Source: a virus | Taxonomy: Duplodnaviria > Caudoviricetes | Reading direction: 5' to 3' (one strand) | DNA length: 64,000 nucleotides | Virus record (IMG/VR): IMGVR_UViG_3300033074_000233 | Location: 128,001 to 192,000 of that record | Shown: piece after piece, positions 536 to 53,764 of the stretch | How positions within the stretch are numbered: the stretch's first letter is position 1 | Layout of the letters: every line of letters starts with the position of its first letter | Position numbers and translations under genes: made by a program | The notes under the pieces: model-generated | Databases searched by the model: none | Told to the model about the DNA's origin: nothing | Seen by the model: only the letters and a program-made list of their open reading frames with translations

Positions 536-813
536 GCCAGCCTCAGTTTGACACCTACCTGCTGCACCTGCCTCCTATCAACCTGAATAACATTAGCCTT
601 CTGTATAGGTATAATGGCGAGTTTCACGCAAATCAGAAGGAAAAGGACGTAGGGTTCACTATGTCAAGCAAAGCACCTAAAACCCGTGAAATCTCTCGTG
701 TTTTGGACGGCCTTTTACGCAACCGATAGACTGATACTGGCCTCGCGTCTTTCTAGGCACGAGGCCATTTTTATGCTCAAAATCCACCACTGTACGTCTG
801 TACAGTACCCTAT

Positions 814-962
814 TCTGCAAACTTTTGATATGAGGGCTGCCACACGTGGTTCTGTAAAATAGCAGTAAATACACGCCTCAGAGGGCTTGTTCTGAGGCCG
901 TCTATCGTGCTATACTGTCGATGCTAGACCTCTATAGCAGACGACTATCAAAAGTTTGCAGA
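814..962 (+). promoter_or_regulatory. Inverted-repeat-bracketed sigma70-type promoter module, copy 1
   Basis: 17-bp perfect IR (814-830 / 946-962); TTGTTC 887-892, 18-nt spacer, extended -10 TGC-TATACT 908-916. Confidence 0.75.
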
Positions 963-1000: not shown

Positions 1001-1330
1001 ATGGCCAAGGCCAAAGCGAAAGAAAAGAAAGCACCGAAGTCTGCGGGTACTGCGGCCTTCATCGAGGACTACAAAGGCAAGCCAACCTTCGGTATATGGA
1101 ACGTCGATGCTGACGGCGACAAGGTAGGTGACTACCCGTTGATAGCCTTCGGCATGAAGAAGGCCGAGGCCCTCATGGAACACATTGACGATCTTGAGGA
1201 GTACATCGAAAAAGGCGGTGAGGCCGCCCTGGAAGAAAATCCGAAGCGCAAGGTCAAGAAAGAAGAACCCAAGAAGAAAAAGAAGCCCAAGGTCGTTCGC
1301 CGTTCGGACTCGGACAGCGACGAAGACTGA
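1001..1330 (+). CDS. Small charged hypothetical protein (possible PC4-like ssDNA-binding core)
   Basis: GGAG RBS; Lys-rich ends; core YKGKPTF..YPLIAFGMKKAEAL; fold call is tentative. Confidence 0.6.
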   Translation: MAKAKAKEKKAPKSAGTAAFIEDYKGKPTFGIWNVDADGDKVGDYPLIAFGMKKAEALMEHIDDLEEYIEKGGEAALEENPKRKVKKEEPKKKKKPKVVRRSDSDSDED

Positions 1331-2074: not shown

Positions 2075-2119
2075 GGCGCAAATCACAAGTTTGCGCTGAA
2101 CAGAATACGGAAGCGTTAC

Positions 2120-3056: not shown

Positions 3057-3077
3057 TCCCAGGTAAGTAACTGAGCG

Positions 3078-3106
3078 AAGCGGGGCCTTCTGGGCTCCGC
3101 TTTTTC
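3078..3106 (+). terminator. Rho-independent terminator
   Basis: AAGCGGGGCC-TTCT-GGGCTCCGC stem followed by TTTTT. Confidence 0.75.
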
Positions 3107-3147
3107 TCGTTTGTTCAACGTGCAAACTTTTGAGATTTGGAGACACC

Positions 3148-5221: not shown

Positions 5222-7171
5222 ATGGCCATTGTATTTCGCAAGGCTGAAAAGAGACCAAGCATGACCGAGCGCTTGGCTCTTGTTGACATGATTAAGCAAC
5301 TCCTCAAGGCTGACAAGGCCTATTACAACGGCGACAAGCCAATCATGTCGGACGCGGCCTATGATGCACTACGCGAGCGTGCCTACAAAGCACACAAAGA
5401 CACCAACAACCGCAAGGAAATGCACAAGGGCAAGATTGACGCCAACGCCTACTTCAAACGGGTTGGTGCTCCTGTTCGTGCTTCCAAGCGTAGTGCGAAA
5501 CTGCCTGTGCAACTCGGTTCGCTCAAGAAGGTCAAGTCGGATGACGCCAAGGCCTTGAACCGTTTCTTTGCGAATGCAAGCGCGGCTGCGATTGATCATG
5601 GACGTTACTGTGCCTCTTTGGGCAAAGATTATGCTGGCGTTGCCTCAATCTGGCTACGTGGAGGTGTTACGGTTCTCACGTCGCCGAAACTTGACGGCCT
5701 GACCTTGCTGTTGCATTACCACAAAGGCACGTTGACCAACGCTTTCACTCGTGGCGACGGCGAGAACGCCCAGTCGAAGATGGAACACGCATTGGCCCTA
5801 GTGGCCCTTGGTCGTATTCCGATGACGCTGCCCAAGTCTGCGTTTCACAAGTTTGCTAAGGCTGACTTGTATACGAAAGGTGAGGTCGTCTGTCGTTTGA
5901 AGGCCTTCAAGGCAAAGTGGCAGGGCAAAGGCTATACCAATGCGCGTAACGCGGCAGCGGGCTGGTTGAACAGCGACAAAGCCAAGCATCCGATTCACAA
6001 CGCAATCGACTTCATTGCCTACGACGTATTCACCACTACAGGTGAACTGGGTATTGAAGATGAGCCGCCCTCCACCAACGCAGGTCCTGCAGCGGACAAG
6101 CATCACACGCTGACCTGCCTTAAGAAGGCTGGCTTCAAGACTTACCTGAGCAGCGGTTTCTTTTCTGTCGACCACTTTCCTAGTGGTGCGCCTAGTGCTA
6201 ATTGGAAGGCTATTTTGGAGGAGAAACTTCTTCACCTTAACGACTCACCTTACCAACTTGACGGTCTGGTCATTGAGGTAAACAACAATTACATTCGGGG
6301 CAAGATGGGATCGAAAGACGGTCGCCCGAAGTTTGCTATCGCCTACAAGACCAGTGCAGACGATCTGGAGAACAACGAAGGCGCTGACTCCGAGATCACC
6401 AAGATCGAATACAACACCAGCAAGGTTGGTGCGCTCAAGCCGATGATTCATTACAAGCCTGTGCGTGTGATGGACTCCACTCTGGCTAAGGCGACAGGCA
6501 ACAACGTGTCGTACTTGATCCGTGAAGGTCTGGGCGTAGGCGCAAAAGTTCGTGTAGTGAAAGCCGGTGGCATCATTCCCAAGGTCCACTTGATCGGCCC
6601 GAAGATGAAAGCCGACAAGATCGTTCCTACGCACTGTGAGTGTGGTGCACCTGCTGTGCCTGTAAAGAAAGGCAGCAAGATGATGCCCGACTACTACTGC
6701 TCGAAACCGAGTAAATGTAAAGTGATTCAGCGCGAACTGTTAGGCGCGTCGATCAAGCAACTGGGTATCGTCGGCCTCGCGGGAAAGACCATCGACAAGT
6801 TGTTTGACGCCGGCTTCACCAGTCTCACAAGTTTGCTGTCGGCTGACGCCAAGAAGATTGCGAAGATTCCAGGCTTCGGTCAAGCAATGGTTACCGCAAT
6901 CAAGGTTGCGCTGCCTGCTGCCTTAAAGAAGTGCTCTACTTACGAGGTAATGGATATGTCTGGCGTGTTCATGCAGCCTGGCCTGTCCCTGGGGACTTCG
7001 TCCTTGGTGAAGTTGGAGAAGGTCATTGGAAAGAACATGACCATTACTCCAAAGGATAAGAAACGAATAGTTAAAGCAATTGGTCCTGCTAAGGGCCAGT
7101 TGTTCATTGACAAGTACCCAGAGTGGTGTGAGTACAAGTCCAAACTGATTAGCAAAATACCTTTAAGGTAG
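5222..7171 (+). CDS. ligA: NAD-dependent DNA ligase
   Basis: AYY..KPIMSDAAYD, KLDG, TRGDG, NARNAAAG, DGLVI, FAIAYK, OB fold, C4 zinc finger, HhH; no BRCT seen. Confidence 0.95.
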   Translation: MAIVFRKAEKRPSMTERLALVDMIKQLLKADKAYYNGDKPIMSDAAYDALRERAYKAHKDTNNRKEMHKGKIDANAYFKRVGAPVRASKRSAKLPVQLGSLKKVKSDDAKALNRFFANASAAAIDHGRYCASLGKDYAGVASIWLRGGVTVLTSPKLDGLTLLLHYHKGTLTNAFTRGDGENAQSKMEHALALVALGRIPMTLPKSAFHKFAKADLYTKGEVVCRLKAFKAKWQGKGYTNARNAAAGWLNSDKAKHPIHNAIDFIAYDVFTTTGELGIEDEPPSTNAGPAADKHHTLTCLKKAGFKTYLSSGFFSVDHFPSGAPSANWKAILEEKLLHLNDSPYQLDGLVIEVNNNYIRGKMGSKDGRPKFAIAYKTSADDLENNEGADSEITKIEYNTSKVGALKPMIHYKPVRVMDSTLAKATGNNVSYLIREGLGVGAKVRVVKAGGIIPKVHLIGPKMKADKIVPTHCECGAPAVPVKKGSKMMPDYYCSKPSKCKVIQRELLGASIKQLGIVGLAGKTIDKLFDAGFTSLTSLLSADAKKIAKIPGFGQAMVTAIKVALPAALKKCSTYEVMDMSGVFMQPGLSLGTSSLVKLEKVIGKNMTITPKDKKRIVKAIGPAKGQLFIDKYPEWCEYKSKLISKIPLR

Positions 7172-7200
7172 TGTAAAGTACCGCGAACAGGACCAACCAC

Positions 7201-9009: not shown

Positions 9010-9333
9010 ATGAAGACCCGCGAAATTTCACCGGCCCGAAAGGGCGGCCTTATGTATCTGGACATATACTTCGTTGAGGAACTTCTAAGGTCCCTTAACA
9101 AGACTATTCCAGAGTCGGTCCTGAAAAGGGAAAAGAAACTCGCGGGTCTCATCGAAAGTTTGCAGATTTGTGTGAACACTCACCGAGAAGACATACGCAC
9201 AGGTCGCGGTATTGTTATCGGCAGAGACATACAGGAAGTAAGATACATAAGAGACCCAGCACAGAATCAACCTACCAAGCCTATCAAACCTACAAAGAAG
9301 GCTAAGGCCAAGACAAAATCTAAAAGAAGGTAA
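9010..9333 (+). CDS. Hypothetical basic protein
   Basis: 107 aa ORF in operon context. Confidence 0.55.
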   Translation: MKTREISPARKGGLMYLDIYFVEELLRSLNKTIPESVLKREKKLAGLIESLQICVNTHREDIRTGRGIVIGRDIQEVRYIRDPAQNQPTKPIKPTKKAKAKTKSKRR

Positions 9334-9335
9334 CC

Positions 9336-9737
9336 ATGAAAATTTTCATCGCGGTTCCTTACACAGGAACAAAAGAACAGCAGGAAGAACGCTTCAACTT
9401 GGTGAGGACTCATGCACTTACGCTTGCACGTATGGGCCACTATCCTGTTTCACCTGTTTTTACTTTTCATCCTCTGGTAGACGAACTACCTGAGGTACCG
9501 TATGAGTTCTGGATTGAACTCAGCAAGGAATATCTCGATGGATGCAATACTATCCACGTGATAAAGGCTGAGGGCTGGAAGAAGTCAACAGGTGTTCATC
9601 ACGAACTGGTCAGGTCGTTGACACTTGACATACCTGTGTTCCTTGTTCCAGAAGACCACGTTGACAAGCCTGTTCTTGCCAGAGACTATACCCAGCCGCT
9701 TGACGTGCGGGCTTTTCTGGCTGACTCGCTGGAATAA
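9336..9737 (+). CDS. DUF1937 / nucleoside deoxyribosyltransferase-like protein
   Basis: IFIAVPY, SPV..HP, FW, GW..S.GV..E. Confidence 0.7.
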   Translation: MKIFIAVPYTGTKEQQEERFNLVRTHALTLARMGHYPVSPVFTFHPLVDELPEVPYEFWIELSKEYLDGCNTIHVIKAEGWKKSTGVHHELVRSLTLDIPVFLVPEDHVDKPVLARDYTQPLDVRAFLADSLE

Positions 9738-9743
9738 TTTTCA

Positions 9744-9820
9744 GGGCCTGTAGTTCAGTTGGTTAGAACAGCGGACTCATAATCCGTTGGTCCTCGGTTC
9801 AAGTCCGAGCAGGCCCACCA
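9744..9820 (+). tRNA. tRNA with CAT anticodon, most likely tRNA-Ile2 (lysidine type)
   Basis: Cloverleaf GGGCCTG/CAGGCCC, loop CTCATAA, TTCAAGT, CCA; resembles ileX-type rather than Met. Confidence 0.9.
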
Positions 9821-9838
9821 TTTCAACCACACCAAAGG

Positions 9839-10090
9839 ATGAGTATCGTGCTTATAGGTAGTATCGTGTTCTGGCTGTTTGCCTACGCCTTCACAGGCGG
9901 CTGTATGTACTCGATATACGCAAGGCTGGAACATGAGAACATTAAGCACCCTGTGTGGATTGTGTTTCTCGGTTTGTTTCTTGGCCCAGCGATTCTGCTT
10001 GGCCTCGCTCTGATAAGTATCTTCGCTATAGGCATGGGTATCTGTCAGACTATCATTGATGCGCTCTTTCCAGTGAAATCTGTAAAGTAG
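9839..10090 (+). CDS. Small membrane protein
   Basis: Two hydrophobic segments. Confidence 0.6.
   Translation: MSIVLIGSIVFWLFAYAFTGGCMYSIYARLEHENIKHPVWIVFLGLFLGPAILLGLALISIFAIGMGICQTIIDALFPVKSVK
10080..10089 (+). promoter_or_regulatory. CTGTAAAGTA phage promoter-like motif (also at 15250, 16741, 21228, 29369, 35631, 48574, 53754)
   Basis: At least 8 exact + strand copies, five at gene boundaries. Confidence 0.65.
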
Positions 10091-10101
10091 TGTATACAGG
10101 T

Positions 10102-10395
10102 TTGGGTGTTGTGTGGTCCATGAGTAGGCCTAGTGAGTTCCCAAAGACTCAAGGTACAATGCGAAGGGTGTGCCTGCCTACGAATAACTGTCGCGCCACG
10201 GGATGGTGATCCTTCGGTTCGCCCCGACTAGGCCCGTGAAGGAAGAAGTTTACTTGTGCTAGAAGCCTCGCGTGGGTGCGATGCTCGCCTGTACGGCCTT
10301 AGGGCTATTGGCGGAGGTCCGCGAAATAGGGTCATGTACCCGTGCATGAGTTAGCCTAAGCCTTTTGCTGACAGCCTGGAAAGACAGGCACCTAA
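10102..10395 (+). ncRNA. Orphan structured RNA candidate with tRNA top-half-like ends
   Basis: No ORF; terminal helix 10102-07/10390-95; GCCTG-GAAAGA-CAGGC arm; GGCCTAGT/ACTAGGCC; further hairpins. Confidence 0.65.
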
Positions 10396-16181: not shown

Positions 16182-16679
16182 ATGGGTATCAAAACGAAAG
16201 ACAAGAAGTCCACCAAGTCGAAAGGCAAGGAAGAGATCGTGAAGAAAAAGAAGAAGTCGAAGGAAGGCGAGAAAGTAGAACGCTCGTCCAAGAAAAAGAA
16301 GGGCGAGAAGAAAGCGCGCAAAGTAAAAGCCGTGATCGAAGTCAAGCCGATCAAGGAAAAACTGAGCCGCATGGGCCTTATCAATCACCTGGTTGATGAG
16401 ACCGCTGTCGAAGCCAAGTCTGTCAAGAAAGTCCTGGCTGCCCTGGAAGCCACGATCAAGGGTTCGATTATGAAGAAAGGTCTGGGCGAGTTCACCTTCC
16501 CAGGTCTGTTCAAAGTCAAAACCAAGTTCAAGCCGAAGCAGAAAGGCGGCGAGAAGAAGAAGAACCCGTTCAAGCCGGGCGAGTTCATCATCACCAAGCC
16601 GAAGCCCGCTTCGATCAAGGTCAAAATCCTGGCAATGAAGCGTTTAAAGGATGCGGCTGCCCTGCCGCCGAAAGAGTAA
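16182..16679 (+). CDS. HU family DNA-binding protein with Lys-rich N-terminal extension
   Basis: LINHLVDET....VKKVL.ALE, FTFPGLFKV, NPFKPGE..I.KPKPAS.KVK...KRLKDA. Confidence 0.85.
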   Translation: MGIKTKDKKSTKSKGKEEIVKKKKKSKEGEKVERSSKKKKGEKKARKVKAVIEVKPIKEKLSRMGLINHLVDETAVEAKSVKKVLAALEATIKGSIMKKGLGEFTFPGLFKVKTKFKPKQKGGEKKKNPFKPGEFIITKPKPASIKVKILAMKRLKDAAALPPKE

Positions 16680-16846
16680 GCACGGTTCAGAGAGTCAGGT
16701 GCTGCCTTCACGCGGGCACCTTATCCTCTGCATAGCAGTTCTGTAAAGTAAACGCACAACAGGAGAAGCAAACTTGTGATTTAGACTGTCCGCGCTATAC
16801 CCTAACCCATGAGACACAGGAGGTACTCGTATGTCACAAATCCGTT

Positions 16847-33695: not shown

Positions 33696-33840
33696 AGCAA
33701 ACTTTTGATTCTATTGACTACCTACACCAACGCTCTAAAATGGCCGTTTTTACGCGAGAAAAACGCTTGTTTTTAGTGCTTTTTTATGCTATACTGTAGA
33801 TGCTAGAAAACGTCGAAAATACGGCTATCAAAAGTTTGCT
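33696..33840 (+). promoter_or_regulatory. Inverted-repeat-bracketed sigma70-type promoter module, copy 2
   Basis: 14-bp IR (33696-33709 / 33827-33840); TTGTTT-17-TATACT with TG extension. Confidence 0.75.
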
Positions 33841-39818: not shown

Positions 39819-39958
39819 AGCAAACTTTTGACTGCTCTCAGGGCACCCTAGAAAGGAGCTGGGTTTGCATCGTAAAAGGCCCTGTTTGCAGAGGGTCTCA
39901 GGACGTGCTATAATGACAGCGCAAGACTACACGCTAGAATCATCATCAAAAGTTTGCT
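39819..39958 (+). promoter_or_regulatory. Inverted-repeat-bracketed sigma70-type promoter module, copy 3
   Basis: 13-bp IR (39819-31 / 39946-58); TTGCAG-17-TATAAT with TG extension. Confidence 0.78.
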
Positions 39959-53521: not shown

Positions 53522-53764
53522 ATGTTAGCACAAGCCGAGATCGAAACGCTGGAGCAGGCCCTGAACACCGAGCCAACTACGAACTTCCTCGTGTTGCTCC
53601 GTGAGGAGGCCAAGCAATATGGATGGACGAAACTCGAAAGAGAGACAGGCATAAGCCGTCAAGGCATGCACCAGGCCTTGAGTGAGAGGGGCAATCCTCA
53701 GTTTGCGACTGTCCACGCAATACTGAAGGCCCTGGGAGTAAAGATCACTGTTACTGTAAAGTAG
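53522..53764 (+). CDS. Addiction module antidote-like HTH protein (HI1420 type)
   Basis: G.TKL.RETGISRQGMHQALS.RGNP.FATV..ILKALG. Confidence 0.85.
   Translation: MLAQAEIETLEQALNTEPTTNFLVLLREEAKQYGWTKLERETGISRQGMHQALSERGNPQFATVHAILKALGVKITVTVK

Follow-up and report, generated by a model that had tools for sequence, protein, structure and literature searches.

A short asymmetric DNA word, (A)TCAAAAGTTTGC, recurs at the strong early promoters of an uncultured jumbo (giant) bacterial virus. We tentatively read its copies as dispersed operators of a site-specific protein, probably a DNA-bending one, that would control early and some middle promoters (probability roughly 45%), with recombination resembling that of promoter-early stem-loop (PeSL) cassettes as a side effect. 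The word is treated here as a 12-mer, written GCAAACTTTTGA in left-arm and TCAAAAGTTTGC in right-arm orientation, or in the 13-bp form given above. The window that was analysed (64,000 nt) covers bases 128001-192000 of a 215,992-bp IMG/VR virus record, which is linear and 84% complete as estimated by CheckV. Genes of the record lie on the minus strand up to ~72 kb, on the plus strand at ~72-199 kb and again on the minus strand after ~199 kb. The entire window falls inside the plus-strand early/middle block of 126 kb, which carries many small ORFans together with genes for an NAD-ligase, RtcB, a DHH phosphoesterase and denV. Comparisons with cultured phages (megablast, blastn and tblastn) returned no close cultured phage for the region, for the module described below or for the HU-like protein of this virus. 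The ligase shares only 27% identity with its counterparts in proteobacterial jumbo phages, and a terminase search for taxonomic placement gave no result.

Three inverted pairs of the word, M1 to M3, enclose promoters in the window, at the places and with the inverted repeats (17, 14 and 13 bp) and G-to-C spans (143, 143 and 138 bp) that the original prediction had reported. Specifically, the left (upstream) arm of M1, GCAAACTTTTGA, occupies positions 817-828 within an inverted repeat that extends to 814-830. It is followed on the plus strand by a sigma70-type early promoter at 887-916 (TTGTTC, an 18-nt spacer and TGC-TATACT) and by the right arm, TCAAAAGTTTGC, at 948-959, which starts 31 nt past the -10. 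In M2, the exact left arm at 33697-33708 precedes a plus-strand promoter at 33767-33795 (TTGTTT, a 17-nt spacer and TGC-TATACT) and a plus-strand right arm at 33828-33839, 32 nt past the -10. The left arm of M3 (39820-39831) begins 2 nt past the stop codon of the preceding gene; its promoter, at 39885-39914 on the plus strand, reads TTTGCA, an 18-nt spacer and TGC-TATAAT, and its right arm (39946-39957, plus strand) lies 31 nt past the -10 and 4 nt ahead of the Shine-Dalgarno sequence GGAG. M1 and M2 share TGCTATACTGTnGATGCTAGA, as had also been noted; otherwise, paralogous modules resemble one another in their interiors only over the stretch from the -35 to the right arm. Scanning the full genome for more copies, as had been suggested, revealed further solo copies and a fourth module, M0, outside the window (genome 73595/73754), where two direct copies 159 bp apart stand around TGCTATAAT.

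All modules contain a sigma70 early promoter close to consensus, in which a TTG-type -35 hexamer precedes TGCTATAMT by 17-18 nt. The plus-strand block, and the genome as a whole, has five TGCTATAMT promoters, and the right arm accompanies four of them. Across nine modules, which include those of three relative lineages, the gap between the -10 and the right arm is 29-32 nt in all nine and 31-32 nt in eight, whereas the gap between the upstream arm and the -10 hexamer varies from 63 to 109 nt. The upstream copy is in direct orientation in M0 and is missing from the M0 orthologue of the related contig L060. Because the -10 gap is fixed and the upstream copy is variable or missing, we consider the right (downstream) arm to be the constant element and the upstream arm a frequent but optional one. 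Assuming that transcription starts 7 nt after the -10, the right arm lies at about +25 to +36. Centre-to-centre distances between arms are 110, 126, 131, 131, 131, 132, 137, 140 and 159 bp and have no common helical phase, which bears out the earlier remark that the 5-bp spacing difference of M3 argues against strict helical phasing. With regard to orientation, leader copies are right-arm in a ratio of ~9:1 and upstream copies left-arm in a ratio of ~5:1, so that the ATCAA ends of both face the promoter; given this strong positional bias, the orientation of the word matters inside modules.

Several other features were seen in and around the modules. The fifth TGCTATAMT promoter, TGCTATACT (genome 84041, outside the window), is the only one of the five without a right arm. 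GCTAGA occurs 6-22 nt past the -10, among the first transcribed bases, in all four arm-bearing early promoters (window 923-928, 33802-33807 and 39931-39936; genome 73741-73746) and likewise ahead of the solo arms at genome 77547 and 87236. A word resembling (G/A)AGGGTC(G)T occurs repeatedly, both at early promoters, where it falls within the -35 region or immediately upstream of it, and inside modules (window 882-886 and 39892-39898; genome 73640-73648, 73697-73705 and 84026-84032; L046:9300-9308). It may be a second binding site. Adjoining the M1 left arm upstream is a hairpin, ACTGTAC-GTCT-GTACAGT (window 788-807), which is kept in the related contig L058 (ACTGT...ACAGT). The first gene past M1 (window 1001-1330) encodes P0244, a 109-aa protein without a family match, whose N-terminus is rich in lysine and alanine and which also has a lysine-rich stretch and an acidic tail of serine and aspartate; it may be nucleic-acid-binding or histone-like. 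Two further promoter candidates were dropped: a second upstream sigma70 promoter in M2 (TTGACT-16-TAAAAT), which is not conserved in L045 or L048, and a leftward promoter mirrored beside the left arm, whose -10-like TATTTT/CATTTT is not conserved in orthologues.

In the 216-kb record, 12 exact copies of the 12-mer were counted, where ~0.03 would be expected. On the plus strand, eight of these copies read TCAAAAGTTTGC and four GCAAACTTTTGA; all 12 fall in the plus-strand early/middle block, and the late blocks have none. Matches with up to two mismatches number 33 in the window versus 8.2 ± 3.1 in shuffles, and the word is in the top three over-represented non-coding 10-mers of the genome, alongside CTGTAAAGTA and ATTAAATTAG, both candidate phage promoter motifs. 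The base before the word is A in 14/17 right-orientation copies across genomes, and we therefore take the 13-mer ATCAAAAGTTTGC as the unit. Complementarity between paired arms scarcely exceeds this unit (12-14 bp in M2, M3 and the relatives' modules), with M1 as the exception (17 bp).

Copies of the word also stand alone. The solo left-orientation copy already reported in the window, at 3122-3133, follows an intrinsic terminator (3077-3103) and precedes the Shine-Dalgarno sequence of a 259-aa gene, and the one-mismatch right-arm variant TCACAAGTTTGC, likewise reported (2083-2094, plus strand), lies in an intergenic gap between two genes and occurs five times in the genome. Another one-mismatch variant, GCAAACTTGTGA in left orientation (16768-16779), is found directly 3' of the HU-like gene, 17 nt past a promoter-like TCTGTAAAGTA motif, and is kept in the relative L057. 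Right-orientation solo copies at genome 82399 and 87236 lie close to the 3' end of a 487-aa gene and immediately ahead of a terminator, respectively, and a third, at genome 77547, is placed 30 nt past a TCTGTAAAGTA motif. The word thus also follows this second type of motif, at 28-30 nt, at genome 77547, at its orthologue L060:5820 and at L058:19693.

The TCTGTAAAGTA motif is itself strongly over-represented, with 14 copies of CTGTAAAGTA versus 0.5 expected. Exact occurrences in the window are at 10079, 15249, 16740, 21227, 29368 and 48573, and variants at 797, 851, 25299, 27925, 35630 and 53753. The motif is co-oriented with genes in both strand blocks, often 25-60 nt ahead of gene starts, tRNA clusters or an RNA gene, and is a candidate promoter for a phage sigma factor (gene at genome 113586). 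M1 contains a variant of it, kept in L058, that stands downstream of the left arm and upstream of the sigma70 promoter.

Relatives of this phage were found via protein queries with denV (84% and 74% identity), the HU-like protein (96-70%) and proteins of 298 and 320 aa, which yielded ~70 kb of sequence from three lineages in ENA and Logan assemblies. Pattern searches were less productive: an exact-pattern scan of IMG/VR for the inverted-repeat pair gave 0 matches, and an IMG/VR scan for the promoter plus right arm gave 36, approximately the estimated chance number, none of them with the 52-53-bp span of the modules. A JGI metagenome scan for the inverted pair recovered only two long palindromes that are unrelated, and IMG/VR scans that started from two proteins, the ligase and the DHH protein, brought up no relatives. 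More distant denV homologues (P0006 and P0007) were rejected as relatives because they reside in unrelated phages.

The exact word recurs in the relatives' contigs, which contain orthologues of M2 (L045/L046/L047 and L048), M1 (L058/L059) and M0 (L060) and, in L046, two further inverted-pair modules. In pairwise or three-way alignments, both arms of the M1 and M2 orthologues are identical at 12/12 positions (including the M2 left arm, invariant in a three-way alignment) and the -10 box at 9/9, while the DNA from the left arm to the -10 is identical at only 35/88 (M1) and 36/81 (M2) positions. The non-coding surroundings are ~40% identical, with 28/64 (M1) and 13/45 (M2) upstream of the left arm and 24/53 (M1) and 18/57 (M2) downstream of the right arm. 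Since the arms are invariant amid decayed interiors and flanks, they are discrete elements under strong purifying selection, and their conservation in related phages, on which the original prediction had made its case depend, is observed for both modules. Solo copies are also conserved at orthologous places (genome 77547 and L060:5820; genome 80948 and L060:10943; window 3122 and L058:10948). The site ahead of the 259-aa gene reads GCAAACTTTTGA in the window and TCAAAAGTTTGC in L058, i.e., the opposite orientation, in a context that is alike in both phages (same terminator, same TCGTTTGT and same gene start). Another pre-gene site, at genome 80948 (one mismatch) and L060:10943 (exact), is left-oriented in both phages.

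A more distant relative, L054, whose HU-like protein is 59% identical, has no arms in 20 kb. The early promoters of this contig (39% GC), TGATATAAT, share another leader word, AGGTATAGCT, ~40 nt past the -10, followed by a conserved leader (L054:1815-1880 and 7129-7190), and lineage-specific leader words past early promoters may be general in this phage group. In L060, a 417-aa gene on the minus strand (9036-10289), with DUF7487 and a faint TnsA-like nuclease N-domain, lies antisense beside the gyrase B gene and may be a homing-type nuclease insertion.

Of the looping phage repressor with paired operators that had been proposed for the modules, the operator part is supported by the exact footprint in relatives, by its occurrence in both orientations and by its locked position at promoters. 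Obligatory pairing or looping is not, the upstream arm being optional, once direct and unphased. Two observations count against the operator reading: the arm-to-arm distances are without helical phasing, and the positional orientation bias would also suit an RNA-level or strand-specific role. Other explanations of the word were weighed against the same data.

The window and L046 are collinear upstream of M2, and the alignment ends at the last base of the right arm, past which the small genes are in a different order in L046. The 61-nt core of M3, from promoter to arm, recurs in module B of L046, between and ahead of different genes, and the L046 orthologue of the gene downstream of M3 is without a module. 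Module positions do mark synteny breaks in relatives, a point that the original prediction had proposed to check. This pattern would be expected if no trans factor were involved and the arms were part of a conserved PeSL-like promoter-leader cassette, homogenised by recombination or gene conversion, with the inverted copy as a by-product: the right arm is precisely where the relatives cease to be homologous, the M3 core has come to stand with other genes, the early genes past M2 are in scrambled order, and the upstream copy is missing in one M0 orthologue and direct in M0 itself. It also has a documented precedent in the PeSL cassettes of T4-type phages, where cassette recombination reshuffles early genes (PMC2839356, PMC4122927). 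Nonetheless, we consider this explanation unlikely. Solo copies distant from any sigma70 promoter are kept at orthologous places, the word also occurs past a second promoter class, and the left arm is kept at 12/12 positions amid decay, a pattern that gene conversion could not produce over a tract of 12 bp.

A role at the RNA level would have the arms pair in read-through transcripts, forming a stem of 12-17 bp by which the promoter region is enclosed, as an RNase III/processing site, an insulator or a masking device, while transcripts from the internal promoter carry the right arm unpaired; T4 hairpins that separate read-through from promoter-proximal transcripts are comparable. The stem between left and right arms does appear in the minimum-free-energy fold of each of the three modules (z = -6.1, -3.8 and -2.2), leader copies are nearly always in right-arm orientation, and several arms lie 4-5 nt ahead of a Shine-Dalgarno sequence. 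However, the stem is 4 to 31 nt from the ribosome-binding site and does not consistently reach it. All pairs use one identical sequence without pair-specific covariation, and their complementarity ends at the word. M0 has direct repeats and its orthologue no upstream copy, many copies are solo, and one solo site is flipped between relatives. Because covariation is absent and because of the direct module, the solo copies and the flipped solo site, recognition of double-stranded DNA by one trans factor is favoured over an RNA stem, which appears to us quite improbable. A conserved RNA hairpin in the leaders was also considered and rejected, as local hairpins differ among modules.

Miniature non-autonomous elements of the MITE type, with the arms as terminal inverted repeats, would account for identical short inverted repeats around a 140-bp unit, and IHF sites inside transposon ends have precedent (IS1 and IS10). 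We regard such elements as very improbable here. Target-site duplications are absent from the flanks of the three window modules, the interiors of paralogous modules have only the promoter core in common, no transposase was seen, and orthologous modules occupy the same place in relatives with interiors that are old and diverged. The idea of a mobile promoter cassette analogous to PeSL, raised in the original prediction, hence stands in so far as synteny breaks fall at the cassettes, but not with respect to ends of a transposon type. Invertible promoters, the other possibility it had raised, are scarcely credible: although 13-17-bp inverted repeats around a promoter are the anatomy of known invertons (fimS, hin and Bacteroides invertons), in which a site-specific recombinase would here flip the 120-bp segment between the arms, neither a resolvase/invertase (PF00239) nor a tyrosine recombinase (PF00589) was found in the 216-kb record (84% complete), the promoter faces the downstream genes in 9/9 modules from four lineages and several independent assemblies, one module has direct copies, and a flipped promoter would yield only antisense RNA to same-strand genes.

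If the word is read by a protein, its sequence points to the IHF/HU class. ATCAAAAGTTTG agrees with the IHF consensus WATCAANNNNTTR, as used previously (PMC9452768, PMC10380432), at each of its fixed positions. By our own estimate, the chance of such a fit for a 13-mer is ~1e-4. The pattern ATCAA-AAGT-TTG is present in all copies that have A before TCAA (14/17 in right orientation, across genomes), and the W position is met in about half. In M1, the right arm is preceded by TA, giving TATCAAAAGTTTG, a full match to the consensus. Genome-wide there are 15 matches to the consensus versus ~11 expected, and six of the 15 are arms; a general genomic excess of IHF-consensus sites was rejected, as there is none beyond the arms. 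This counts against a binder of this class, and so do two further points. The exact invariance of the 12-mer exceeds that of typical IHF sites, with HU and TF1 homodimers having little sequence specificity, and the ATCAA core of the consensus is disrupted in TCACAAGTTTGC, a recurrent variant.

The only HU/IHF-family gene of the phage encodes P0121 (165 aa; window 16182-16679, plus strand), a candidate binder of the word. P0121 scores 24 bits against PF00216, keeps the arm-tip proline and has a lysine-rich N-terminal tail of ~50-60 residues. The nearest solved structures to its family profile are ASFV pA104R (6e-12) and SPO1 TF1 (3e-6; structures 1exe and 1wtu), ahead of cellular HU. TF1 is the classic phage HU homologue and prefers sites at early promoters on modified (hydroxymethyluracil) DNA; for literature on it, see the references of PMC3969353. 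Against P0121 as the binder, L054 encodes a 59%-identical HU-like protein and has no arms in 20 kb. A HigA-type antitoxin-like helix-turn-helix protein (80 aa; window 53522-53764) matches HTH_3 with 22.1 bits, just below the Pfam cut-off. It was the sole helix-turn-helix match and the only other recognisable DNA binder found besides P0121, with no link to the sites, and is a possible binder of the word.

Returning to the operator reading, (A)TCAAAAGTTTGC would act in cis as the double-stranded-DNA target of a single sequence-specific protein. This would most likely be a DNA-bending protein of the IHF/HU class that binds the minor groove, either IHF of the host, assuming that the host has it, or a TF1/pA104R-like HU homologue of the phage. 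One copy is fixed in the initially transcribed region of strong sigma70 early promoters, and the word also stands after some TCTGTAAAGTA-type promoters; a second copy is usually found ~80-130 bp further upstream with its ATCAA end likewise toward the promoter. Occupancy of these sites would bend or wrap promoter DNA and thereby set the level of early transcription, or switch it off, in the course of infection. Since the block from promoter to arm is the only sequence common to the cassettes, it may also serve as a homologous-recombination joint through which small early genes are reshuffled between related phages. In a more specific form, which we think rather doubtful, the source would be a hypermodified jumbo phage whose own TF1/pA104R-like protein reads the invariant 13-bp word via the minor groove in a truly sequence-specific way, with two outward-anchored U-turn bends at about +30 and -100 folding strong early promoters into small closed loops that turn early transcription off, and the sites doubling as recombination joints. 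Temporal control is poorly understood in jumbo phages that depend on host RNA polymerase, and a strictly conserved word at +25 to +36 offers a concrete handle on it, for regulator pull-down and footprinting, for reporters of early shut-off and for the study of HU-family sequence specificity on modified DNA.

Among known systems, gal OE/OI is an operator pair that brackets a promoter and is looped with HU. The modules resemble it in having one site upstream and one in the transcribed region, ~110-160 bp apart, but differ from looping operator pairs of the gal/lac type in that their two sites keep no constant helical phase and some modules can do without the upstream one. P1 C1 repressor operators are similar in that a single asymmetric word recurs at many operons in either orientation. 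IHF sites near phage early promoters are known from lambda pL and Mu Pe, and the word is like them in meeting all fixed consensus positions, in its asymmetry and in its nearness to strong early promoters. Those sites, however, are degenerate and located upstream of the promoter, whereas the 12-mers described here are invariant and paired, with one copy past the start site. The likeness to SPO1 TF1 lies in a phage-encoded HU-family protein combined with sites at early promoters; TF1 sites are without a strict consensus, and P0121 differs from TF1 by its long lysine-rich N-terminal tail.

The modules share with PeSL cassettes a repeated non-coding unit of ~100-150 bp with a near-consensus sigma70 early promoter, placed ahead of small ORFans in a plastic early region. 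In both, the cassettes mark indel or replacement break points between relatives and one core heads different genes. PeSL cassettes have, upstream of the promoter, a local terminator formed by a G+C-rich stem-loop, while the modules have an A+T-rich 12-13-bp word past the start site and an optional inverted copy ~130 bp away, and the word is also found solo and past another promoter class. No local stem-loop common to the modules was found, and only M1 has an upstream terminator-like hairpin. Because the defining local stem-loop terminator is missing, the modules are an analogue of PeSL and not a member of that class. They extend the PeSL idea, of regulatory cassettes as gene-shuffling joints, to phages other than the T4 type and to cassettes of another architecture.
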